A DNA stretch of 64,000 nt from the IMG/VR virus record IMGVR_UViG_3300045988_113377, positions 1 through 64,000 of that record; one strand, given 5' to 3'. Both the position numbers and the translations under genes were made by a program. Within the stretch, counting starts at the first letter, position 1, and the number at the start of each line of letters is the position of its first letter. The stretch is from a virus. The notes beneath the pieces were generated by a model that had not been told where the DNA came from, ran no database searches, and was given only the letters and a program-made list of their open reading frames with translations. Shown here piece after piece: positions 2,567-54,224 of this stretch.

Positions 2567-2821
2567 ATGACAGATAATAACATAGATGTGAATATCGTAC
2601 CTGTAAAGAATGGTGCGAAACGTGTTGTGGTATCATATTACCATTATTCACGCAAGGACAAAAATCACATGAGTTCCCAAACGGATTACGTTTGGGAAAC
2701 AAAGAATGAAGAAATGTTTAAATACTTTGAGGCCAGGAGGACAAAAGTATTTTATAGTCAGATTCGTGCCATGTGTAGATTCTATGGCAAGAAAAATGTA
2801 CGTAAATACAAAAAGCTATGA
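2567..2821 (+). CDS. hypothetical protein (84 aa)
   Basis: ORF only. Confidence 0.45.
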   Translation: MTDNNIDVNIVPVKNGAKRVVVSYYHYSRKDKNHMSSQTDYVWETKNEEMFKYFEARRTKVFYSQIRAMCRFYGKKNVRKYKKL

Positions 2822-3627
2822 TATTAAAAACGACAACCGACGAGTTTTGTTTCATTAACGTAAGTTTCTATGAAACAATAGCAGATCCTCGCTATTTCTT
2901 TGAACAAGATTATGAAGAGATGCCGGAATATGAGGAGGAATTAGATTTTGATTTTGATTCTTATCGCAATAAGTTTATTCCTTTTGTACAGGAATGGGCG
3001 AATAAGGTGGGCGAACGCCTTTATGAATATGGTGTGAATAACATAAAGGTAATATCGGTAGGACATCCAAAAGAATACAATTATGGTACTGATTGGATGA
3101 ATGTAGGGGTAGAGTTTTGTGATAAATGGAGGCAAAAGATGTTATCTAACATTGGTAAGATTGTTAATGATGATAAATGCAAGAAGTATGCGGAGGCTAA
3201 TTATCGGTCGGTATCAGGATACATCTTTTTAGGGCCTGAAGATTTAAAGGAATTTGAAAAGAAAATAATAGAAAGAAAGTCAGATTCGGGATATGATGTA
3301 ACAATATTATTAAATATGTATCTAACTTTGGCTTTTGTAAAAGAATTTGGATTTAAAGCCGGAGAAGCATGGAGTGAAATAACAGAATATGCTTACGGAT
3401 GTTTGTCGTATTCCGATTTTGCAACAACGGAAACGCTTATACCGGAAGGTTCGGAGTATTTATTCAATGATGTGCATACAGCAGAAGCCGACGAATTATA
3501 TCATCATGTCCTGGATAAATACGGATGGGCGTGGCGTGATCCGAAATATAAGTCAGAAACAGAATTATGCGCGATGCTAAAGTGGGCAAAAGAAAAAGGC
3601 TTGACCATTGAAGAGTTAAGTATTTAA
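2818..3627 (+). CDS. hypothetical protein (269 aa)
   Basis: long ORF, ATGA start overlap with upstream gene. Confidence 0.65.
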   Translation: MILKTTTDEFCFINVSFYETIADPRYFFEQDYEEMPEYEEELDFDFDSYRNKFIPFVQEWANKVGERLYEYGVNNIKVISVGHPKEYNYGTDWMNVGVEFCDKWRQKMLSNIGKIVNDDKCKKYAEANYRSVSGYIFLGPEDLKEFEKKIIERKSDSGYDVTILLNMYLTLAFVKEFGFKAGEAWSEITEYAYGCLSYSDFATTETLIPEGSEYLFNDVHTAEADELYHHVLDKYGWAWRDPKYKSETELCAMLKWAKEKGLTIEELSI

Positions 3628-3639
3628 TTGTTAAACATA
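3619..3639 (+). promoter_or_regulatory. copy 1 of 21-nt exact repeat AGTATTTAATTGTTAAACATA (second copy at 52689-52709)
   Basis: 21/21 identity between two loci 49 kb apart; overlaps stop codon of 2818..3627 and precedes a hairpin and the next gene. Confidence 0.45.
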
Positions 3640-3654
3640 AGGCAGTAGTGGTGC

Positions 3655-3939
3655 GTGAGTATAGGTGCTGCCGTTAAAATATTTTATAAGATGAAAAAAG
3701 AAGAGATTCAAACTATTTTATACACAATCAAAGAAGGAGACAGTATTAAAATCAAAGTACAAGACAAAAGTGAAGAGATAAGATTGCGGGATCATGTAAG
3801 AAGAACGCAGAAATACGGATACAGGTTTTGTTTGTCTCATTTACATGATGGAATTTTCTATCTGGAGAAGTTGGAGGAAGGGGATAAGGATAAATACTAT
3901 AGAGTAATAAACAGAGGAAATGGAAAGACCGGAGTATAA
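3655..3939 (+). CDS. hypothetical protein (true start probably ATG at 3691, MKKEEIQ...)
   Basis: ORF; internal ATG with A-rich leader more plausible than GTG at 3655. Confidence 0.45.
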   Translation: MSIGAAVKIFYKMKKEEIQTILYTIKEGDSIKIKVQDKSEEIRLRDHVRRTQKYGYRFCLSHLHDGIFYLEKLEEGDKDKYYRVINRGNGKTGV

Positions 3940-5691: not shown

Positions 5692-5768
5692 TTTTCCATG
5701 CGAGTTAGTTGCCGGCAATGGTCTGCGAAGATAGGTGCCGTTTTTTTATTCAAGAAAGGAGGACAAAG

Positions 5769-6020
5769 ATGGAGAAAAGAGACAAGAAGATACCTTACGA
5801 GGTAGTCATACAGGAAAGAAAAAGAGTGGATTTGTACGGTAACGTAGTGTATTATATCCATTGGTTTGATAAATATGGGTACAATATCACAAACGAATGG
5901 AAATTCTGGAGCAAGGGTCCGAAAAAGAAATACGATAGAGTTAATCGTTATCTAACGGATAGTTGGTTGAAGGAATACTGTGGGAATAACGATTTAAAGA
6001 TAAGGAGAATAAAGGAATGA
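5769..6020 (+). CDS. hypothetical protein (start at ATG 5769 preceded by AAGGAGG; ORF track begins 5709)
   Basis: SD AAAGGAGGA 7 nt upstream of internal ATG (MEKRDKK...). Confidence 0.5.
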   Translation: MEKRDKKIPYEVVIQERKRVDLYGNVVYYIHWFDKYGYNITNEWKFWSKGPKKKYDRVNRYLTDSWLKEYCGNNDLKIRRIKE

Positions 6021-6532
6021 AAAAGATAAAAGTAGACAAAGTGATATTATATTACATGGATCGGGTAGACCCTGACGGGAACCCATACCGGTTCTATGTA
6101 TATAAAGACATGGCATCTGAAATAGAATACTTTTGCACGGAAGAGACAGGTAATATGACTATACCAATCGGAGAAGGAGAGTATGTCGAGATCGTACCAA
6201 AAAAAATAGAGAAAATACCGGTAAGGGGATATAGGAAGCTTACTGGAATATGGAATCGTGAAACATGTAACGGGAAGGGATGGTATAGGCTTTTTAATTA
6301 TTTCAAATACAAGCCGACCCTATGTTATTTTAAAAAAGCGGGACATGATGAAAATGGGAACACAAGATACGAAATATCATTATTTAATAACATTATAAAT
6401 GTGACAAGGTATTTCAATCTGTGGAGAATGAAGCCAGGAAAGTATGTTATGGTAACAAACGAGTGTGGTGCCTTGGATGTTATAAAAGAAAAATTCGATA
6501 ACATAAATATAGTGGAATATGGATCTGAATGA
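6017..6532 (+). CDS. hypothetical protein (171 aa)
   Basis: ORF, ATGA overlap. Confidence 0.55.
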   Translation: MKKIKVDKVILYYMDRVDPDGNPYRFYVYKDMASEIEYFCTEETGNMTIPIGEGEYVEIVPKKIEKIPVRGYRKLTGIWNRETCNGKGWYRLFNYFKYKPTLCYFKKAGHDENGNTRYEISLFNNIINVTRYFNLWRMKPGKYVMVTNECGALDVIKEKFDNINIVEYGSE

Positions 6533-6887
6533 ATTGTACAAAGAAATAGAAAAAGCAGAGGTTGATCTGAATGCAAAAAGATTAAAGTACATCAAAGAGG
6601 CATTAGTGGAGAACGGTGGAAGTATAAAGCTAAAATTCAAAGAATTTAAAGAGTTTAAAGAAACTAATGATGCGTTTGACTTCGATGATCAGTTTCCGGT
6701 GATAATAGAAATTGCTGGGATTCCTATGTATTTAACGGAAGTGTATGTCAAAAAAAACGATTTTCGTATAGTTCTGCTGGATTATGATGATATGACTTTA
6801 GGTGATTATGATAATACAGGGGAAAATGAACAGGTTGCTTATTTTATTAACTATTGTTTAAATCAAGACAAAGATGGGAAAGAGTAG
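6519..6887 (+). CDS. hypothetical acidic protein (122 aa)
   Basis: ORF only. Confidence 0.5.
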   Translation: MDLNELYKEIEKAEVDLNAKRLKYIKEALVENGGSIKLKFKEFKEFKETNDAFDFDDQFPVIIEIAGIPMYLTEVYVKKNDFRIVLLDYDDMTLGDYDNTGENEQVAYFINYCLNQDKDGKE

Positions 6888-7062
6888 AAAAGATTATGAG
6901 AAGTTTCTTAACTCCATATCTCCAGATAGAGACGATGAAACATGGATCATTGGAGGAAAGAACAGGTATTGCGGTAGAGAGAATTACGGCACTATGATCA
7001 AAAGGTATGATCCTATTGGTTTTAACGTAGGGTACAGGGAGTGGGCAGAACAGCCAGGGTAA
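6874..7062 (+). CDS. hypothetical protein (62 aa)
   Basis: ORF only. Confidence 0.35.
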   Translation: MGKSRKDYEKFLNSISPDRDDETWIIGGKNRYCGRENYGTMIKRYDPIGFNVGYREWAEQPG

Positions 7063-7088
7063 GGTGGAGCCTGCCCTGCCATGAGGTC

Positions 7089-7120
7089 GGCCTGGCTGTC
7101 TGTGGCCAGGGTCGTATATT
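7089..7120 (+). terminator. GC-rich hairpin (CCTGGC/GCCAGG), likely transcription-unit boundary
   Basis: 7091-7096 pairs 7105-7110; preceded by second GC-rich hairpin 7040-7075; unusual GC-rich patch in AT-rich genome. Confidence 0.4.
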
Positions 7121-7193
7121 AGTCAGATAGTGAACAATGAAAACGATACAAATATTATGAATTTAGGCAATCATATACCTAAAATAATAGTTT

Positions 7194-7508
7194 ATGACAT
7201 TCAAAGAATTTATGAAAGAAGTAGGCTATGATCTGATGACTACCTTTTGGGAAGATTTCAGCATAGCTGATAAGTATGGTATAGCAGGTGTCAAAGATAC
7301 CTACAAACGTGCGTTTGATGAATGGAAAGGTAATTATAAGTTCTTCACAGAATTGGTGATTGTGTTGAATCATAAAATATGGCAACATTATGAAAGCAAT
7401 CGCAAACTGGCTGCATTGTATGACCGGTTATGGCAAGAAGCTGATGAGTATGCCATGAACAACTTTAAGGGAGAAGAACTTGATTATTATTACAGAGTAA
7501 CAGATTAG
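7194..7508 (+). CDS. hypothetical protein (104 aa)
   Basis: ORF only. Confidence 0.5.
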   Translation: MTFKEFMKEVGYDLMTTFWEDFSIADKYGIAGVKDTYKRAFDEWKGNYKFFTELVIVLNHKIWQHYESNRKLAALYDRLWQEADEYAMNNFKGEELDYYYRVTD

Positions 7509-7511
7509 AAA

Positions 7512-7970
7512 GTGATTATGAAAAATACGATAGTAACAGGCAGCCTAATTGTATTCAGTGACGGATTTGTTTGGAAAAGATTGTCCAACGAAAAAGCCTA
7601 CAAGATATGGGTGTCGGCAGAAAATGAAGATTTTGAGTTATACAAGGTGAGAGTAGATGATGAGTCCGAGTCATTGATAGAAAGTTTGGAAGATTTACAG
7701 GATGCCTTTAAACAGGGTCATTATGTATGTATAGAAGTAGGTAAGCTACCATATAGCATAGGTTTGAATTACTTACGAAATCTACAAGAGTTATCGGTGG
7801 AAGCTGTGGATTATCTATCAGGACTAAAAGAATGTAGCAGGGAAGAGGCATTTAACATCATTCAAAAGTGGGCTAAAGAGTTTACGGAAAAATATGAAAA
7901 TTATGATTTTAATGGTTCATACTATGATGTAATAGATGCATTTATTGATGAGAAGTTAAAAACTATTTAA
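7512..7970 (+). CDS. hypothetical protein (152 aa)
   Basis: ORF only. Confidence 0.5.
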   Translation: MIMKNTIVTGSLIVFSDGFVWKRLSNEKAYKIWVSAENEDFELYKVRVDDESESLIESLEDLQDAFKQGHYVCIEVGKLPYSIGLNYLRNLQELSVEAVDYLSGLKECSREEAFNIIQKWAKEFTEKYENYDFNGSYYDVIDAFIDEKLKTI

Positions 7971-7981
7971 AATACAAAGAC

Positions 7982-8791
7982 ATGGAAGACGATCTTATTA
8001 CAACAAAAGAAGTAGGCGATTATCGCATTAAAGTGTATTATTGCCGTGATTCAGAACGCCCTATAACTAATTGGGGTTTGTTTGGGTCATTCTTTTTTGA
8101 ATACTCTGATATGCATCAATTGCATGATGAATGCAATTGGAAAACTTTCTTCTACGATAACAAGCATGATCTTAGAGATGTTATTGATGCTATTGTAATG
8201 AAGCATATAGAACAGAAAGACATTGTAAAATATTTAAAGAAAGGGGAAGCGAATGGGATCTCATTCACATACAACAGAGGTGGCAATGTATGGGAGTTGA
8301 AGCATAAGACAAGTCCATATATAGGTCAAGAGTTTTTTCCAAGTGATTTGACGGACTTTGATTGCAGAGGAGAATTAATAGAGGATCTGGATGATGAAGA
8401 CCTGTTAGATATCATATCCAAATATGGAAAAGACGTGGTGGCTATAGAGTGGTCAACAAGGGGTTATAGTCAAGGTGATTATATAAAAGGAATAGCATAC
8501 GTTACAAAAGAAAAATATGATAATGAAGTCTGCGATAAAGAAGGAGACTGGAAAGAAGATTGTGCCAAAATTATAAATAATGAAGTAAAGTCCATAGGTA
8601 TGTGGATGTGGGGAGATATAAAAGGGTACGTTCTTGAAAAGAAGGTAGCATTTACCAAGAAATACAAAGACGAATCAAGAGAGGATGAAGATTGCGAAGA
8701 ATGGGAAGAGGTTGATTCTTGCTGGGGATGTTACGAGGAGACAGATGAATTGATAAAGGAAGTCATGATAGAGAATGGCTTAGAAGAATAG
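7982..8791 (+). CDS. acidic hypothetical protein (269 aa, DE-rich C-terminus)
   Basis: ORF; many Asp/Glu runs. Confidence 0.55.
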   Translation: MEDDLITTKEVGDYRIKVYYCRDSERPITNWGLFGSFFFEYSDMHQLHDECNWKTFFYDNKHDLRDVIDAIVMKHIEQKDIVKYLKKGEANGISFTYNRGGNVWELKHKTSPYIGQEFFPSDLTDFDCRGELIEDLDDEDLLDIISKYGKDVVAIEWSTRGYSQGDYIKGIAYVTKEKYDNEVCDKEGDWKEDCAKIINNEVKSIGMWMWGDIKGYVLEKKVAFTKKYKDESREDEDCEEWEEVDSCWGCYEETDELIKEVMIENGLEE

Positions 8792-9252: not shown

Positions 9253-9656
9253 GCATAAAAGTAATAAGATACAGGTTGCCATCTTGTTGGGCTTGTCCGT
9301 TAATCAATGATGATTACACTGGATTAACGGATGAAGAATGTGAGGAAATCCATAAAATACAAGATATGGAAAGATTGAATTTTGAAACATTGTTTCGTAT
9401 CGTAAGATGGGATTACAACCGTTGCTTTAAGGATGAATCACTGGACAAGGATTTGTTCATAGAAAAATACGGGAAAGTTATGGGTGAACATTATTATAAC
9501 AAGTTTGTCCATGAATTTGACGGAAATATTCTGAAGATGGTTGGTTACTTCAGAGGTTCCGAAAAAGAGGGGCAAGTCTTCTGCGATATGATAACCGAAC
9601 GTATTGAAAAATACGAAAAGAGAATGTCATATGATAAAGGTAAGTTAAACAATTAA
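9249..9656 (+). CDS. hypothetical protein (135 aa)
   Basis: ORF, ATGA overlap. Confidence 0.5.
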   Translation: MSIKVIRYRLPSCWACPLINDDYTGLTDEECEEIHKIQDMERLNFETLFRIVRWDYNRCFKDESLDKDLFIEKYGKVMGEHYYNKFVHEFDGNILKMVGYFRGSEKEGQVFCDMITERIEKYEKRMSYDKGKLNN

Positions 9657-9668
9657 AAAGATATTTAT

Positions 9669-14764: not shown

Positions 14765-15073
14765 TCAAGGCATTTATATGTCATTTTAACACATTTTTTA
14801 TAAATCAATTAATTATTCATTTTTAAGTTACAGTCATGAAAACATTAAAAGAAAAAGACAAACAATCTTTTTTAGCAAGAAAAGAAGAAGCTTATTCCTT
14901 AATAATGGAAATGGGATCATTATTGGCAGATTATGATCATCAATGGTCTAATGAACTAAGAAGAAAATTTGAAAGAGCTACTTCTTTTCTTTCCTCTATG
15001 AATTAGAATATTTTCTATCATCGGGGAACTTATTGGTAGGATTATAGAATACAAAGTAAAACAACTTATTGCA

Positions 15074-18149: not shown

Positions 18150-18398
18150 ATGAAAAAAGATTTAACAGACAAAGAAAAAGAGGAAAGAATGAATTACCTT
18201 ACCATTCATAAATGTAAAAACGAGGATGAACGTAAAGAGTTAAAAGAATTATGTGATTGGTATTTTAAGGATACTCCTACATTAACTATGTCTTTTTCTT
18301 TAACAGAAGAAGATTTTCGGGTAACAATGGAAAGGGACGTGGAGTTGTCGGAGGTAGCCGGAGCGGTAAAGAATCAACACCATAAGAAGAAAATTTGA
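18150..18398 (+). CDS. hypothetical protein (82 aa)
   Basis: ORF; AATTTTAAAAGTTA motif just upstream. Confidence 0.45.
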   Translation: MKKDLTDKEKEERMNYLTIHKCKNEDERKELKELCDWYFKDTPTLTMSFSLTEEDFRVTMERDVELSEVAGAVKNQHHKKKI

Positions 18399-18404
18399 AA
18401 GGTT

Positions 18405-18608
18405 ATGACCGACAGAGAGCTTCTTGAAGAAAACAATAAGATGTTAAAGGAAATTCTAAGTTTTGTGAGAAAAGTTGATTCTGCTGAATACAGGGATCAT
18501 CAAGACTTTATGGAATTTCTTAGAAATGTGGCAGCCGATATATGGGTGGAATATACGGAGCCTGAACAAAGAAGTAAGTTGTTTAATCTAATAAATAAAG
18601 AAAAATGA
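18405..18608 (+). CDS. hypothetical protein (67 aa)
   Basis: ORF only. Confidence 0.4.
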   Translation: MTDRELLEENNKMLKEILSFVRKVDSAEYRDHQDFMEFLRNVAADIWVEYTEPEQRSKLFNLINKEK

Positions 18609-28598: not shown

Positions 28599-28630
28599 TT
28601 TTTTTTATCAACAATTAAATTTTAAAAGTT

Positions 28631-34637: not shown

Positions 34638-35354
34638 ATGATTTCTAAAGACAGGTTATTGTATGGAGTGGTAATCAGACAGGACATTAAAACTTCCTTT
34701 ATGTCATTAACTGGATTACAAGAGGCATATACAAGAAAAAGAGTGGAGATGGGGTGGAATGATAAGAGAATAGAAAATATTCTTTCGAACAAGGAGAGTG
34801 CAGAAAGGATATTTTATATTCTTAAAAAACAGAAATACATAAAAAGTGAAACCTTGAAAGAGTTTATGGATATAGTGGAAAACAACTCTTTGATAAAAGT
34901 AATGAAGTGGTATAATGCCTATAAGACTACAGGAAGAGGAACAAACAGGAATGTCATGTGTGATCCCTACATATGGGTATTAGTCGCTATAGAATTAAAT
35001 CCTATGCTGTATGCAGAAGTCACTGGATGGTTAAATGATAAACTTATTTTGGATAGAATAGAGATAGGAGATAAATACAATACTCTTTCAAGGTCTGTAT
35101 CAAAATTTGAAGATGTTGATTACATAGAAATGGCTGATAAATTAAACTGGATTGTATTCAATAAACATAAATATGTTTTAGATAACAGAGCAACCCAAGA
35201 GCAGTTAAAAGAACTTGAAACGCTTCAATCTAATCTTGCATTTTGTATAGAAATGGGAACCATATCCTCTTTTTCCGATTTAATGAACATGATGAGATCT
35301 ATATATGTAAAGAAATGGGGAGAAGAGACTGTAACCTCTAAAAAAGTAAAATAA
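34638..35354 (+). CDS. hypothetical protein, possible KilA-N/APSES-like DNA-binding N-terminus (238 aa)
   Basis: weak resemblance only; AATTTAAAAGTTA motif just upstream. Confidence 0.35.
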   Translation: MISKDRLLYGVVIRQDIKTSFMSLTGLQEAYTRKRVEMGWNDKRIENILSNKESAERIFYILKKQKYIKSETLKEFMDIVENNSLIKVMKWYNAYKTTGRGTNRNVMCDPYIWVLVAIELNPMLYAEVTGWLNDKLILDRIEIGDKYNTLSRSVSKFEDVDYIEMADKLNWIVFNKHKYVLDNRATQEQLKELETLQSNLAFCIEMGTISSFSDLMNMMRSIYVKKWGEETVTSKKVK

Positions 35355-35355
35355 T

Positions 35356-35643
35356 ATGGGAGTAAAAGAAATAAGAGAACTACTTAGACTCTACAATCTC
35401 GAACATAGTGTCGTCCAGAACAAAAGCTCTGGGCGCTATTCTATTATTCTTCACAATAACATCATAGGAACGAACGTAGATGGAGAGAAGGTAGTTGTAT
35501 TCAGGACCATTCCGGAAGGAAGCAACACGTTCTCTATGGAACGAAATAGATTCTATGAGGAATTTGTAGAGGTTTTTGATGACGATAAGGCGATTGAAGC
35601 CGTAAGACAATATTTTGAGAATAACAGGAATGATAGAGTGTAA
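35356..35643 (+). CDS. hypothetical protein (95 aa)
   Basis: ORF only. Confidence 0.45.
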   Translation: MGVKEIRELLRLYNLEHSVVQNKSSGRYSIILHNNIIGTNVDGEKVVVFRTIPEGSNTFSMERNRFYEEFVEVFDDDKAIEAVRQYFENNRNDRV

Positions 35644-38721: not shown

Positions 38722-38958
38722 ATGAGGTATTTTGTTTTATTGATGGCACTTGTGTTATCATCATGTTCGCATGATGATAGTCAGGTTAATAACGGATGGG
38801 TTATATATGATTTACGTCCTTTACAGGGTGGACGTGTGATGTATTATGCTGAAGACGAAAGAATTTCAATATTTAAACATAATAGAATCATAAAATTCGT
38901 TAGATACCAAGGGGAATACAATATCGGAGATTCTATTAAGATCGTGAAAGTAAAATAA
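38722..38958 (+). CDS. small lipoprotein (lipobox LSSC)
   Basis: MRYFVLLMALVLSSCSHDD signal peptide with lipobox. Confidence 0.5.
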   Translation: MRYFVLLMALVLSSCSHDDSQVNNGWVIYDLRPLQGGRVMYYAEDERISIFKHNRIIKFVRYQGEYNIGDSIKIVKVK

Positions 38959-38959
38959 T

Positions 38960-39448
38960 ATGGAAAATAATTTAAAACTCGTATGCCCAAAATGTGGCAC
39001 CCCTCACCAGCCTCATTCTCCGCACATGATGGATGCAGATGGATTTGAAAGGTGTGAGATAAGAACTGTCATGGAAGACAGGGGGTGGTGCTACGAATGC
39101 TCTTTTTGGCAAAATATGTACGACAAGCACAAAGACGATCCAGGATGGGTTAGGATAGACGGTGAAAGCTGGGTGCTTAAGCCTATGGTGGAAAACGTAC
39201 CGAGCGGATGGAACAGCCTTGGATGTGGTGGAAGAAAGATGTATATCAATATCGAAGGGAAAGGCATTGTTGTATCAAATAACTGCTGGTGCCAAGGTGA
39301 TGTTTCGGACGCATTCAAGGATCTTATGCCTGATAATGCTACTTGGGCTACGAAGGAGGAATTTGACAAAGCTCCTGTAGTAGGATATATTGTAGAAGGT
39401 ATTGGTTTAGTTTTCACAGATAGGGAAGGTCATGAAGTTAATGCTTAG
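38960..39448 (+). CDS. Cys/Trp-rich hypothetical protein (162 aa)
   Basis: ORF; multiple Cys. Confidence 0.5.
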   Translation: MENNLKLVCPKCGTPHQPHSPHMMDADGFERCEIRTVMEDRGWCYECSFWQNMYDKHKDDPGWVRIDGESWVLKPMVENVPSGWNSLGCGGRKMYINIEGKGIVVSNNCWCQGDVSDAFKDLMPDNATWATKEEFDKAPVVGYIVEGIGLVFTDREGHEVNA

Positions 39449-40878: not shown

Positions 40879-41091
40879 GATTTTTGTTTGCAAGATAGCA
40901 ATAATTGACAACATAAAAGAAACCGGTTCCCTATCATCTCTGACTGAGAACCGGTAAGAAAACAATTTCAGAAAAAATTAAACCTACATAATCTTTCAAG
41001 TAAGAACAAAAAACGTACAATCTACTCTTTGACGATGCTAATATAACATATTGGAATCATACAAAAACAATGCAAGTCCGATATTCTTCGT

Positions 41092-47561: not shown

Positions 47562-47604
47562 ATCATAAAAAATAAAGCCATCTAACTTCTCAGTCTGATG
47601 GCTT
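47562..47604 (-). terminator. rho-independent terminator (AAGCCATC/GATGGCTT) for minus strand
   Basis: 8-bp perfect stem 47575-47582/47597-47604, U-tract on minus strand. Confidence 0.55.
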
Positions 47605-48796: not shown

Positions 48797-50017
48797 TTAC
48801 TTTAATATAATCGGATGCCTCTTCCCTCTAATGAGTTTAAACTTTTTGCGTGAAACATCTTTTGAATTTTCTCCGTTGAAATCCCTGATATTGAAACTCC
48901 CTGATTTTCTCCTTCCATAAACAAAACATATTTTATTATTATACAACACTTTATCAAACAACCTAAAACCAAAAACCTCAAAAGGAGCTTGATTGTTTTT
49001 CTTCTTTCCTCCTTTTAAAATTTTCATTTTATGTATTTGCCTATTATGCCTACGAATTAAACGTTTTAAATATTGACATCCGATTCGTTTCGCATTAATG
49101 TTCTTAGAAATGACAAACGCGTCGGATGTATGGGATTTTTCAATCCCGTATTTAATCCGATTATGTTTCGTAATGTAACCAAACGTCATAGAAACTCTGT
49201 CGTATCTGGATCTCAGTTCTTCATACAACTTCCATTTCATGATCCCCATTACGGCTGCGTCGCGTAGCGACTTGCCTCTTCTGATCTTTAAATCTATATT
49301 ACCTTTATGGTATTCTTTGTGACAAGTTTCACATAAGGTAATAAGATTGGATGGGGAATCTCCACCTGTCTTTCGTGATTCAATATGATGAACGTTAAGA
49401 ATCGCATCTTTCGATTTCCCTTTACAATACTGACATTTATGTCCATCTCTTGCTAAAACATATTCCCTAACGTTCCAAAATCCAAGTTGATCACCCTCCT
49501 GATATTCTTTACCAGATATCTCAGGATTGTTAATCTTTTGAGTATCGAATTGAGCTACCTCAACAACAATACGAGATATTGGTAATATAGAACATACATT
49601 GTCAATAACACGAATATGAGCGTCTACTTTGTACCGCACCGAAGGTGCTATCCATCCTTGACGTTTGTTTTTCACCCTGTTGTCAAAACGAGGTTTTCTA
49701 TATCTCAATCTATTTCGTCTCGTTCTTCTCGACTCTCTTCTGGTAGACAAAAGATCTACAATATCATTTCTAAGAATTACCTCACTACTGTAAAGTTCTT
49801 TGCTTTTCGTCGTAGCTGATAGACCAACATGCTTAGTTCCAGCATCAACGCCTAACACAATTTCTTGTTTGTAATCGGATGTGACGTACATTAATTTGAT
49901 GGTAAACGGACATAGGTTCACAACGACTGCCTTGTTTTCTTTAAGCAGTCGTCTTACCTTACCATGCCTTGTTGTAGGCATCATAGGTTTACCATTTATG
50001 TCTTGTACGTACACCAT
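48797..50017 (-). CDS. iscB: IscB, OMEGA RNA-guided nuclease (PLMP domain, RuvC-I, Arg-rich bridge helix, RuvC-II, HNH, RuvC-III, C-terminal TAM-interacting domain)
   Basis: N-terminus VYVQDINGKPMMPTTRHGKVRRLLKENKAVVVNLCPFTIKL matches the IscB PLMP domain; GVDAGTKHVG (RuvC-I Asp); RRESRRTRRNRLRYRKPRF (bridge helix); VVEVAQFD (RuvC-II Glu); CQYCKGKS...NVHHIE...CETCHKEYH (HNH); KSHTSDAFVI (RuvC-III His/Asp). Confidence 0.85.
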   Translation of the reverse strand: MVYVQDINGKPMMPTTRHGKVRRLLKENKAVVVNLCPFTIKLMYVTSDYKQEIVLGVDAGTKHVGLSATTKSKELYSSEVILRNDIVDLLSTRRESRRTRRNRLRYRKPRFDNRVKNKRQGWIAPSVRYKVDAHIRVIDNVCSILPISRIVVEVAQFDTQKINNPEISGKEYQEGDQLGFWNVREYVLARDGHKCQYCKGKSKDAILNVHHIESRKTGGDSPSNLITLCETCHKEYHKGNIDLKIRRGKSLRDAAVMGIMKWKLYEELRSRYDRVSMTFGYITKHNRIKYGIEKSHTSDAFVISKNINAKRIGCQYLKRLIRRHNRQIHKMKILKGGKKKNNQAPFEVFGFRLFDKVLYNNKICFVYGRRKSGSFNIRDFNGENSKDVSRKKFKLIRGKRHPIILK

Positions 50018-50379
50018 ATCTACAAACGTTTTTAATGTTTATTCAACATAAGTCAGGAATATTTCATCCTGTTAGTACCCATCGCCAATGTTATAAGAGG
50101 TTTTGATGCAAGCAACACTGTTTCGCAAATACACTACTCCTGTTTAATCGCTTGCCTTAGGGCTACGGACTTGGGCAAACATCCGTAGGTAACTATCTAT
50201 TCTCAAATAACGTAGCCTTAGTTTCAAGGCTTAGGCTAATATCCGGACCATTTCTGGTACATTAAAACCTTATAATGAAATTATATTGTTTTAATGTTAT
50301 TTCGGATATACAGATATACTTTTTACCCCCAATCGATTCTTTTTATCTTACGACCTAATTTAAGCCGTTCTAAAGCCTG
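50018..50379 (-). ncRNA. candidate omega-RNA of IscB (structured non-coding leader directly upstream, same strand)
   Basis: 362-nt ORF-free interval with multiple mutually exclusive helices (GGCTACGG/CCGTAG/CGTAGCC, TAGCC/GGCTA) consistent with a pseudoknotted scaffold; position matches known IscB-omegaRNA architecture. Confidence 0.55.
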
Positions 50380-52185: not shown

Positions 52186-52239
52186 AAAAAATACTTTTTC
52201 AACAAATGTACGACATTCATGAATTAATTAGATTTAAAA

Positions 52240-52290
52240 TAAAACAATATGAATTAAAATAAAAACCCGATACGTTAAAATCGCATCGGG
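52240..52290 (-). terminator. rho-independent terminator (CCCGAT/ATCGGG) for minus strand
   Basis: stem 52266-52271/52285-52290 then U-rich run on minus strand. Confidence 0.5.
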
Positions 52291-52581
52291 CCTGGTATTG
52301 AAAAAACAGGTTCAGATCTTGGGTAAAGACTCGAGCCAATTTTTAACATCTTTATATTTAGGGTCTTTGTCTATTCTATCTCTCAGTTCATGCAATGCTG
52401 AGTCCATAACCGTATTCGGTACGCCAATCAACTCTCCTATTAAATACAAGGGTGTTTTATTTGATTTAGATTCGTGTGCTATATTCATGTCAAAAAAAAA
52501 GTTATGTGAAACAAACCGGCCACGGGTATTCTATTGCCCGCCGACCGGTATAACATTTTTTTTATTCCTTTTTTTTCCAAA

Positions 52582-52604
52582 CGGGAAAAACGGGAATGCG
52601 GGAA
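52582..52604. repeat. three direct CGGGAA repeats at 8-9 nt spacing
   Basis: cgggaa at 52582, 52591, 52599 preceded by long T-tracts. Confidence 0.4.
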
Positions 52605-52688
52605 TCATATTTTTCACTATGGCTCCCGCACCACCGTTAGCCCCGGCTCCATCTAAAAGGACGATTTTATCACCACCCATAATTTTAT

Positions 52689-52709
52689 AGTATTTAATTG
52701 TTAAACATA
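52689..52709 (+). promoter_or_regulatory. copy 2 of 21-nt exact repeat AGTATTTAATTGTTAAACATA
   Basis: identical to 3619-3639. Confidence 0.45.
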
Positions 52710-52726
52710 CGTGCATGATGCACGTA
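52708..52726. promoter_or_regulatory. 19-bp perfect palindrome TACGTGCAT-G-ATGCACGTA (candidate operator)
   Basis: 9-bp perfect arms around a single central base; abuts the 21-nt repeat. Confidence 0.45.
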
Positions 52727-52803
52727 ACAAAGATCATGATTGCAGGGTGGAATATGGGTGTGTTTATTTCCTATAGAAGAGAAGTATTTTCACAAAAACA
52801 AGA

Positions 52804-52862: not shown

Positions 52863-53516
52863 TCAAGCCATGTTACACAACTTGAATTTATATTCATCAA
52901 TTATATCATTCAAGTCACAATCTGATAAGTTGAACCATTCTCTGTATATTCCTTTGATATCGAATCTTGCATGAAGCTCGCTTTCTATGTCTTTATCCAC
53001 ATAAGCTATTAATGTTAAGTTATCTTCTACAACAGACAATCCAGATAGCCTTCTTTTTACATCAGAACTTTTACCTATTTTATAGAAACCATTATTATTA
53101 TTTCTTATTATATATGTAAAATATTTTATATATTTTTTATTATATCTACCAATAAATCTATGTGTTATATCTAATACACAATCTTCATTTTTAATATTAC
53201 ATAAATCAAATACATCGTGAATAAAATCTTTAAATAAAGACCTATCACACTTCATACAGATAATACATAGAATCGATTTGGGGAATAAATAATAGTCATG
53301 CCTAAATACATGACTATCATTATCTATTATTTGATTTCCATTATTATCATATCTGTATGATATATAATCTATCCCATCCTTAAAATCAAAAGATGATATT
53401 ACATCCTTTATCCAATGTTTAAAATCATACTTACATTCTAACAGTTTATGAACGTATTTTGCGTCAATCATCTTTCTGTCATTTATTAACACAAAAGGAA
53501 TAAAAGTATTATCCAT
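52863..53516 (-). CDS. Bro-N-like + T5orf172 (GIY-YIG-like) domain protein, AT-rich moron
   Basis: C-terminal GFYKIGKSSDVKRRLSGL...NLTLIAYV...ELHARF...REWFNL matches T5orf172 signature; gene about 27% GC. Confidence 0.55.
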   Translation of the reverse strand: MDNTFIPFVLINDRKMIDAKYVHKLLECKYDFKHWIKDVISSFDFKDGIDYISYRYDNNGNQIIDNDSHVFRHDYYLFPKSILCIICMKCDRSLFKDFIHDVFDLCNIKNEDCVLDITHRFIGRYNKKYIKYFTYIIRNNNNGFYKIGKSSDVKRRLSGLSVVEDNLTLIAYVDKDIESELHARFDIKGIYREWFNLSDCDLNDIIDEYKFKLCNMA

Positions 53517-53694
53517 AATAAAAAAAATAGGCCCAAAAGAGAATGTCAGATCCCACTATGACAAACTCTAATGAGCCAAAAATATCTTTCAACATCAAAC
53601 AACCAGAGGTAAGATCTCGTTGTTCATTGTTTCTGGAACAAAGATAAGAACGGGATTTTAAATAACAAATATTTTAATACTTTTTAAATCAAAC

Positions 53695-53720
53695 CAGGGC
53701 CCGCATTACTGCGAGCCCTG
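53695..53720 (-). terminator. GC-rich interrupted hairpin (CAGGGC-CGCA/TGCG-GCCCTG)
   Basis: 10 paired positions with tetraloop TTAC. Confidence 0.45.
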
Positions 53721-53803
53721 ATCTACACTAATCTAAACTAATACCATGAAAAACTTAAATCTAAAAACTAAAGAACACACAAATGTAGGAAAATGTATGC
53801 CTT

Positions 53804-54134: not shown

Positions 54135-54160
54135 TATACGTGCATATATGAGAAAAGTGA
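54135..54160 (-). terminator. hairpin AAGTGAG/CTCACTT downstream of 752-aa gene
   Basis: 7-bp stem, 12-nt loop; no clean U-tract. Confidence 0.35.
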
Positions 54161-54224
54161 GACTTTCACAAGCCTCACTTCCCAAATTATAACCATGAAA
54201 AAACTATATATATGTACACAAAAA

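Follow-up and report, generated by a model that had tools for sequence, protein, structure and literature searches.

Why should a phage genome hold the same 21 nucleotides (nt) twice, 49 kb apart, in modules that are transcribed in opposite directions? The question is raised by a 64,000-nt stretch of viral DNA (IMG/VR record IMGVR_UViG_3300045988_113377, positions 1 to 64,000; hereafter the window), in which the 21-mer AGTATTTAATTGTTAAACATA is found exactly at 3619-3639 (copy 1) and at 52689-52709 (copy 2), both times on the + strand. We propose, tentatively, that the repeat is a sense/antisense RNA pair and not two equivalent DNA sites. CrAss-like phages, to which the window belongs, are the most abundant viruses of the human gut, and their gene regulation is almost uncharted beyond the virion RNA polymerase and the host-type middle and late promoters.

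Sequence identity marks the window as part of a crAss-like phage of Bacteroidales. It shares ~93% identity with a human gut phage, csAssE-Sib (OR575929.1; 151 kb), whose annotation includes portal, muzzle, ring and giant virion proteins, and homologues of its spike-like protein, at 44% identity, are present in crAss-like phages and in a phage of Bacteroides uniformis. A literature search returned no paper on csAssE-Sib. Genes occupy the + strand from 1 to 39.5 kb (small genes and replication functions) and the - strand from 39.8 to 64 kb (virion and late functions), a two-module layout with which the GC and AT skews agree. Both copies of the 21-mer have the same DNA orientation, yet they lie inside oppositely transcribed modules; because the sites are transcribed from opposite strands, their RNAs would be complementary over 21 nt.

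The first-pass annotation had called an exact 21-mer at two loci in the same orientation unexpected by chance, and this is confirmed: the window holds no third copy at up to three mismatches, against an expectation of 0.02 from shuffled sequences. The 21-mer, which carries a partial dyad (TTTAA-N3-TTAAA), is also the longest exact dispersed repeat of the window, the runners-up being one 19-mer and two 17-mers. A 19-mer, TAAGAAGAAAATTTGAAAG, lies at 14957-14975 inside an open reading frame (ORF; 14836-15006) and at 18383-18401 just before the gene at 18405. When we searched the window and the whole csAssE-Sib genome at up to six mismatches, a single additional near-copy (four mismatches) was found, in a leader just outside the window. 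This sequence, ATTGTTTAACAAATAAATACA, matches 17 of 21 positions in the leader orientation and lies 7 nt before the ATG of a gene of 179 amino acids (aa).

A gene leader and its inverted copy

Comparative evidence places copy 2 in the untranslated leader of a late-module spike-like gene. Read along the - strand (TATGTTTAACAATTAAATACT), it spans leader positions -29 to -9 and is separated by 8 nt from ATG 52680, the start of a truncated ORF of 49 codons (52531-52680, - strand). The full product in csAssE-Sib is a 335-aa 'spike protein/glycoprotein' (PHROG 16490, no Pfam family). The deposited annotation begins the spike-like gene at an upstream ATG (52737), reading through the 21-mer. A 1-nt deletion between the 21-mer and ATG 52680 is found in 15 of 120 relatives; ATG 52737 is therefore not the start, the stretch upstream of 52680 is non-coding, and the annotated start is corrected to ATG 52680. 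The gene was cut to 49 codons by a deletion of ~2.7 kb relative to csAssE-Sib (window 52186-52680 against ~5898-8640 of locus L002), in which most of the spike-like gene and several small genes were lost. Among ~100 related loci, ~81 have a spike-like ORF of 335-343 aa and ~20 have assorted shorter ORFs; this Gly-rich repetitive gene appears to be either often disrupted or often mis-assembled. The gene-poor segment in which copy 2 had initially been placed is real as a deletion remnant, and looks gene-poor because the deletion reduced the spike-like gene to a stub, but copy 2 itself stands directly before a gene start.

Copy 2 is one member of a family of leaders. The reverse complement of the 21-mer includes the 10-mer AACAATTAAA, which at copy 2 lies at 52693-52702 (- strand), with 12 nt between it and the ATG downstream. 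The window has five exact copies of the 10-mer, counting both strands, and each has an ATG 11-14 nt after it. On the + strand they include 140-149 (11 nt, then ATG 161; an 86-aa ORF in csAssE-Sib, shorter here), 9648-9657 (11 nt, then ATG 9669 of a 353-aa gene) and 28610-28619 (11 nt, then ATG 28631 of an SPFH/flotillin gene). The whole csAssE-Sib genome has seven exact copies, six of them in the sense direction 11-12 nt before annotated ATGs. The genes behind them, which come from both modules, encode products of 86, 353 and 246 aa, an SPFH/flotillin protein and the spike-like protein, and versions with one mismatch precede the major capsid protein gene, a GH5 gene and others. The sites at 9648 and 28610 occupy intergenic gaps of only 12 and 32 nt. 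Given its presence in both modules and before several operon-internal genes, the motif is not a class-specific promoter.

The genes behind the AACAATTAAA motif have no Shine-Dalgarno (SD) sequences, and among 83 putative starts in the window, 17 are SD-like while at least 31 have TTAAA- or TAAAA-type motifs at about -16 to -10. An A-rich non-SD ribosome-binding motif, ~9 nt from the start, is known for Bacteroides and Flavobacterium (PMC6028130). Copy 2 has the sense A-rich motif ~9-12 nt from a start that marks this class, and the family occurs before internal as well as first genes of operons. Sequence and spacing together thus show copy 2 and the AACAATTAAA family to be leaders of the Bacteroidetes A-rich, non-SD ribosome-loading type. 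The extended start-site motif defined here, AACAATTAAA-N11-12-ATG, helps annotate related phage genomes.

Copy 1 does not fit this class, as it is inverted relative to all local genes and its spacing to an antisense ATG drifts. It includes TTTAATTGTT, the reverse complement of the leader 10-mer, and is the sole inverted instance of the motif. Copy 1 (+ strand) covers the last two codons and the stop (TAA 3625-3627) of a + strand ORF of 269 aa (2818-3627) together with 12 nt of the 3' untranslated region (3'UTR). It precedes a two-tier, terminator-type hairpin (3641-3672, + strand), which is followed by the A/U-rich GUUAAAAUAUUUUAU, and then the next gene (82 aa; 3691-3939, + strand), whose ATG (3691) comes ~19 nt past the hairpin in all three lineages compared at this site; the original description of copy 1 as straddling a stop codon ahead of a hairpin and a gene was accurate. 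The comparison of homologues shows copy 1 to be, as far as sequence can tell, a stop codon and 3'UTR segment ahead of a conserved terminator-type RNA hairpin. No function is assigned to the 269-aa protein, which has 83 homologues with identities down to 50% and no Pfam or PHROG match. Its ORF is intact in the window. In csAssE-Sib it is annotated as two coding sequences of 157 and 103 aa (L001, 3319-4123), and in lineage L470 a T8 run makes the corresponding ORF read on through the hairpin, so that where this gene ends depends on homopolymer length.

We suggest, with considerable reserve, that a 3'UTR RNA from copy 1 exerts antisense control over the spike-like leader. An RNA ending at hairpin 3641-3672 would carry a single-stranded 21-nt 'anti-leader', its UUUAAUUGUU-containing seed lying directly upstream of the terminator hairpin with its GNRA cap. 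By pairing perfectly with 21 nt in the leader of the spike-like mRNA, this anti-leader would keep ribosomes from loading; weaker pairing with other AACAAUUAAA A-rich, SD-less leaders in the opposite module may also occur. Expression of the target, a gene for a spike-like and possibly membrane-active protein, would thereby be coupled to transcription of the other module. It is conceivable, then, that a 3'UTR RNA of the replication-side module mediates RNA cross-talk between two divergently organized modules.

The evidence that carries this proposal is, first, the complementarity of the seed to a translation-initiation region, which extends over 21 of 21 nt at leader positions -29 to -9. In co-folding, the heterodimer is predicted at -54.9 kcal/mol against -34.0 for the two monomers (a gain of ~21), and both hairpins are retained. 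In Bacteroides, the small RNA (sRNA) GibS is a repressor that pairs with the SD-less initiation regions of its targets, and sRNAs derived from 3'UTRs are known as well (PMC7366714). A TAACTTTG box at 3323 offers a lead, and only a lead, toward a transcript start. If true, the proposal would describe the first phage-encoded riboregulator of crAss-like phages, and a clean example of translational control in hosts whose ribosomes ignore SD sequences.

Structures and signals beside the copies

The two copies adjoin different structures. Copy 2 shares 2 nt with a 19-bp palindrome, TACGTGCAT-G-ATGCACGTA (52708-52726, - strand), which has a -7-like box on one side and the A-rich leader on the other. 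At its centre, 120 related loci read CGTGCATGAAGCACG (or TGTGC...), giving a 7-bp stem and a 5-nt loop, and the perfect 19-bp symmetry is a single-base peculiarity private to this genome. Thus, copy 2 does abut the palindrome, as had been reported, but the perfection of the palindrome is no property of the site. In the hairpin beside copy 1, an outer stem of 7 bp leads through an internal loop to an inner helix of 4 bp that ends in a GUGA (GNRA) tetraloop. Its G-U pairs strongly favour folding as + strand RNA, at -18.4 kcal/mol against -6.7 kcal/mol for the - strand. A hairpin or palindrome does lie beside each copy, as had been noted, but one is a terminator-type RNA hairpin of the + strand and the other a leader hairpin of a - strand gene, and the two are unrelated.

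Hairpin 3641-3672 belongs to a family of GNRA-capped, two-tier hairpins in + strand intergenic gaps (652-683, 1481-1510, 2502-2535, 3641-3672 and 5713-5740, the last followed by TTTTTTT). Similar GNRA hairpins lie behind - strand genes at 47575-47604, 40922-40955, 54152-54183 and 53690-53725. These hairpins are probably intrinsic terminators or 3'-end stabilizers of this phage, and from its membership in the family, hairpin 3641-3672 is most simply a terminator or 3'-end hairpin, with copy 1 as 3'UTR. The U-tract behind it is interrupted. A terminator scan found nothing at either copy, and Rfam covariance models gave no credible match at either. The family should be useful for annotating related phage genomes.

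A tRNA T-arm-like sequence, GGTTCGATTC(C/T)GG then ATCTCACA(C)AAC, occurs in two copies on the + strand (~700-745 and ~1563-1598), just upstream of the genes starting at 764 and 1608; ARAGORN and Rfam found no tRNA at either (~700, ~1560).

The strand preference of the hairpin bears on one alternative, in which copy 1 serves a small antisense ORF (- strand, 34 codons, ATG 3608) as its leader and both copies are ordinary leaders. Its ATG comes 10 nt past the reverse-complemented 21-mer and its frame is open in three lineages. However, the distance between motif and ATG is not kept at 11-12 nt but varies (14, 17 and 21 nt), no - strand promoter box is nearby, the hairpin is specific to the + strand, and the frame mirrors a conserved coding region, so that its openness is uninformative. 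We judge this reading very unlikely.

On the - strand, copy 2 is preceded by an orderly set of signals. A hairpin with a 10-bp stem (52838-52803), followed by CTTGTTTTTGTG, is likely the terminator of the upstream gene; after a spacer of ~65 nt come an nAnnTTTG box (GATCTTTG, 52728-52735) similar to the Bacteroides -7 element, the palindrome, TATGTTTAACAATTAAATACT, ATAAAATT and ATG 52680. This arrangement could be read to mean that the 21-mer is itself a promoter, its reverse complement supplying TAtgTTTA as a -7 box of the Bacteroides type, which at copy 2 is preceded by TTTG at a distance of 18 nt (TTTG-N18-TATGTTTA), or that a phage-specific promoter lies beside the hairpin; copy 1 would fire an antisense transcript into the 269-aa gene. 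The terminator upstream implies that the spike-like gene requires its own promoter, and crAss-like middle and late genes use host RNA polymerase and extended conserved promoters. However, the conserved G is missing from the -7 box, copy 1 has neither a -33 element nor a - strand gene, and other family members sit in operon gaps of 12-32 nt without promoter boxes. A sigma-70 promoter scan was empty at both copies, and the better-conserved nAnnTTTG box upstream of the hairpin, present in all three spike lineages described below, would place the 21-mer inside the 5' untranslated region. A promoter is thus improbable. A shared promoter or operator had been among the roles first suggested for the repeat; a regulatory role is plausible, with copy 2 in a gene control region, but the copies are not the same simple promoter because they are used in opposite senses relative to local transcription. 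An IHF site, a frameshift or readthrough signal and an N4-like hairpin promoter were each considered and dropped, as their consensus or geometry did not fit at both sites.

The region around copy 2 looks, from its gene content, like a hotspot for selfish and accessory genes. A variable slot adjoins copy 2 and holds a gene with AntA and T5orf172/GIY-YIG-like parts (52863-53516, - strand), where csAssE-Sib has a different antirepressor gene, and in lineages B and C, HNH/NUMOD4 endonuclease genes lie just downstream of the spike-like gene (L256, L258 3508-4185). The window also carries an IscB-type RNA-guided nuclease gene (RRXRR and HNH; 406 aa; 48797-50017, - strand) with a HEARO/omega RNA at 50071-50309 (100.6 bits). 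The whole element (48797-50309) is inserted directly after the stop of the upstream gene; csAssE-Sib has TnpB genes annotated elsewhere and no IscB-like element in the corresponding region. The idea that the 21-mer relates to the IscB guide was rejected, as the sequence in the guide position (50311-50329, upstream of the HEARO RNA) is unrelated to it.

Conservation among related phages

The 21-mer is present in more than 200 related contigs and is confined there to these two contexts. When viral contigs were scanned for it, at least 123 occurrences were found; among the matches listed, 123 of 123 lie in the two intact contexts, with at most two per contig and no hybrid junction. The search of related genomes that had been called for found the repeat conserved in these relatives; in the window and the csAssE-Sib genome, the only further near-copy is the 17/21 match.

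These counts bear directly on the suggestion, made at first pass, that the repeat is a recombination site or the end of a mobile element. The repeat is exact and in direct orientation, and copy 2 borders the variable gene slot and lies 50 bp from the deletion. However, none of the 123 matches listed is a hybrid junction, all lineage A genomes (those with copy 2 in its present form) keep the two sites together with the sequence on either side of each, without empty sites or any presence/absence polymorphism bounded by the repeat, and the boundaries of the deletion and cassettes do not coincide with the 21-mer. Terminal inverted repeats, target duplications, an adjacent recombinase and recombinase domains in neighbouring genes were all absent, and the IscB element is 2.4 kb away with an unrelated sequence in its guide position. 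Both suggestions can be set aside as extremely unlikely.

We also sampled loci independently of the 21-mer, with site 2 loci picked by a coding anchor (n = 120) and 168 loci for site 1. At site 2, the exact 21-mer is present in all 120 loci (0 of 21 positions variable), while the adjacent 33 nt hold nine segregating sites and the 8-nt spacer holds an indel. At site 1, 166 of 168 loci are exact, and the other two have a C to T change at 3636 that would preserve a G-U pair with the copy 2 RNA. Copy 1 thus has one polymorphic site in 21 nt against 0.11-0.18 per nt nearby, a difference that is not significant alone. We count the invariance of copy 2 beside its variable flank in support of the antisense reading.

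Copy 1 is retained, with two to five changes, in homologues of the 269-aa gene at 55-60% identity (L262/L468/L469 and L470/L471), where it reads TTTGTTCAACAATTAAATACT in the L262 lineage and TGTGTCTAACAATTAAAAAAAA in the L470 lineage, and it is entirely absent from homologues at 50-51%. The element and hairpin take the forms AGTATTTAATTGTTGAACAAA then GGTGC...GCACC, and TTTTTTTTAATTGTTAGACACA then GACGCC...GGAGTC. Both variant lineages, in which the protein is only 55-57% identical, keep the inner helix and tetraloop and have five outer-stem pairs altered on both sides (compensatory changes), whereas the core TTTAATTGTT is invariant across all three lineages; this, too, is counted in support of antisense control. 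By contrast, the spike leader differs among lineages. Neither lineage B (81-87% spike identity) nor lineage C (75%) has the 21-mer upstream of its spike-like gene. The position of the leader hairpin is kept in both, filled by unlike sequences (GCCCAC/GTGGGG and GTAGAA/TTCTAC), and each hairpin is preceded by an nAnnTTTG box (GAACTTTG in lineage B, CAATTTTG in lineage C). On sequence comparison, then, copy 1 is old, being common to L262 and L470, and only lineage A has copy 2 in its present form.

The A-rich lineage B leader (UUCAAAAAUAAAUAG; L256/L260, 2425-2503) has a predicted pairing in cis with an upstream U-rich segment around a central hairpin (-20.7 kcal/mol, z = -4.2). This model suggests that translation of the spike-like gene may be structurally gated in other lineages too.

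The lineage comparison also bears on a protein-based explanation, in which a phage or host protein binds the 21-bp site as double-stranded DNA regardless of orientation and controls both the spike-like promoter and transcription at the 3619 junction. Such an operator would account for the TTTAA-N3-TTAAA partial dyad, for the location of both sites in or at intergenic control regions, for their exact identity in lineage A genomes (bar the two copy 1 variants in 168) and, perhaps, for the DNA-binding and antirepressor genes near copy 2. However, the dyad is present in lineage A and broken in L262 and L470, where the asymmetric core TTTAATTGTT is what is kept. The strict sense spacing of 11-12 nt between the 10-mer family and its ATGs fits an RNA or translation signal and not a DNA site, and no cognate regulator was identified. 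We consider an operator unlikely.

A more serious alternative grants the copies no joint function. Copy 2 would be only a leader and copy 1 only a coding end and spacer, their 21-nt identity having arisen by templated or ectopic copying seeded on a shared AT-rich 10-mer; the identity would persist owing to the youth of lineage A and to local constraint on each site. Unrelated gene leaders do share long exact strings. The 17-mer AAAGTAAAATAATATGG is common to two gene starts (35343-35359 and 38947-38963), and leaders are therefore recycled between unrelated genes. The spike leader has evidently been swapped wholesale between lineages, lineage B lacks any second copy, and copy 1 is barely more conserved than its coding flank. 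A single inverted 10-mer is, by our own estimate, about what chance predicts, so that only its extension to 21 nt needs explaining. That extension is where this account falters: the chance of a 10-mer match growing to 21 exact bases is about 1e-6, and copying of 21 nt alone followed by fixation in hundreds of genomes is ad hoc. It is also opposed by the lack of polymorphism at copy 2 beside a variable flank and by the 17/21 match, in leader orientation, in the leader of the csAssE-Sib 179-aa gene. We rate this account only a little below antisense control.

Several observations weigh against antisense control by copy 1 as well. The discrete regulator RNA, with its 5' end or processing site, is a proposal drawn from sequence. 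No informative co-variation of seed and target was found, lineage A being invariant, and one genome with the copy 1 C to T variant keeps a canonical copy 2. The spike leaders of lineages B and C are unrelated to that of lineage A. No second copy of the lineage B spike-leader 21-mer was found, and in a 12-kb neighbourhood from the L262 lineage no leader is complementary to the variant seed of that lineage. Matches to the L262 variant 21-mer in viral_contigs and metagenome_contigs were all unrelated and due to chance, the phage collection holds no complete lineage B, lineage C or L262 genome, and a search for related loci through the FliB-like neighbour returned only relatives at least 94% identical. 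In sliding-window identity, copy 1 exceeds the C-terminal coding sequence beside it by only a little, its low polymorphism does not reach significance by itself, and part of it is constrained merely by coding Ser-Ile-stop. One inverted 10-mer is near the chance expectation, perfect complementarity over 21 nt exceeds the usual need of trans-acting sRNAs, and this particular genome has only a truncated target gene. The established parts of the system (leader motif, terminator-type hairpin and deletion remnant) are each ordinary.

Comparison with known systems

PeSL cassettes of T4-type phages are mobile regulatory cassettes with a stem-loop and an early promoter. The repeat described here is similar in being a short conserved sequence by a hairpin at gene boundaries, with copy 2 adjoining a variable slot; unlike PeSL, it has two copies only, in opposite functional orientation and beside unrelated hairpins, with no cassette exchange bounded by the copies. 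The Bacteroides sigma-ABfr promoter consists of a -33 TTTG and a -7 TAnnTTTG with 19-21 nt spacing (PMC7366714). Copy 2 approaches it with TTTG-N18-TAtgTTTA, but its -7 box is imperfect (no G), copy 1 has no such arrangement, and upstream of the leader hairpin there is a better box.

The closest match for copy 2 is the Bacteroidetes A-rich non-SD motif, which is 'group B' of GeneMarkS-2 (Wegmann et al. 2013, as cited in PMC6028130). Like that motif, copy 2 and five other AACAATTAAA sites are A-rich, in the sense direction and at a fixed short distance from the start, and they precede both first and internal genes of operons. They differ in sharing an unusually long exact 10-mer, which reaches 17-21 nt at two or three sites, and the inverted copy 1 cannot act as a leader. 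Copy 1 instead resembles GibS (PMC7366714) and 3'UTR-derived sRNAs, in that an AT-rich, extended single-stranded seed would lie by a terminator-type hairpin; as with GibS, the target region is just upstream of a start codon. Unlike these sRNAs, the putative regulator is encoded by a phage, sits within the 3'UTR of an mRNA, matches perfectly over 21 nt and is known from sequence alone.

IstR-1/tisB and OhsC/ShoB are trans-encoded antisense pairs of chromosomal toxin-antitoxin loci with adjacent genes. The proposed pair shares with them ~20 nt of perfect complementarity between separately encoded RNAs and a target in the leader of a gene for a membrane-active protein, which in our case is a possibility. 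The partners in those loci are neighbours, whereas here they lie 49 kb apart, in different modules of the phage genome.

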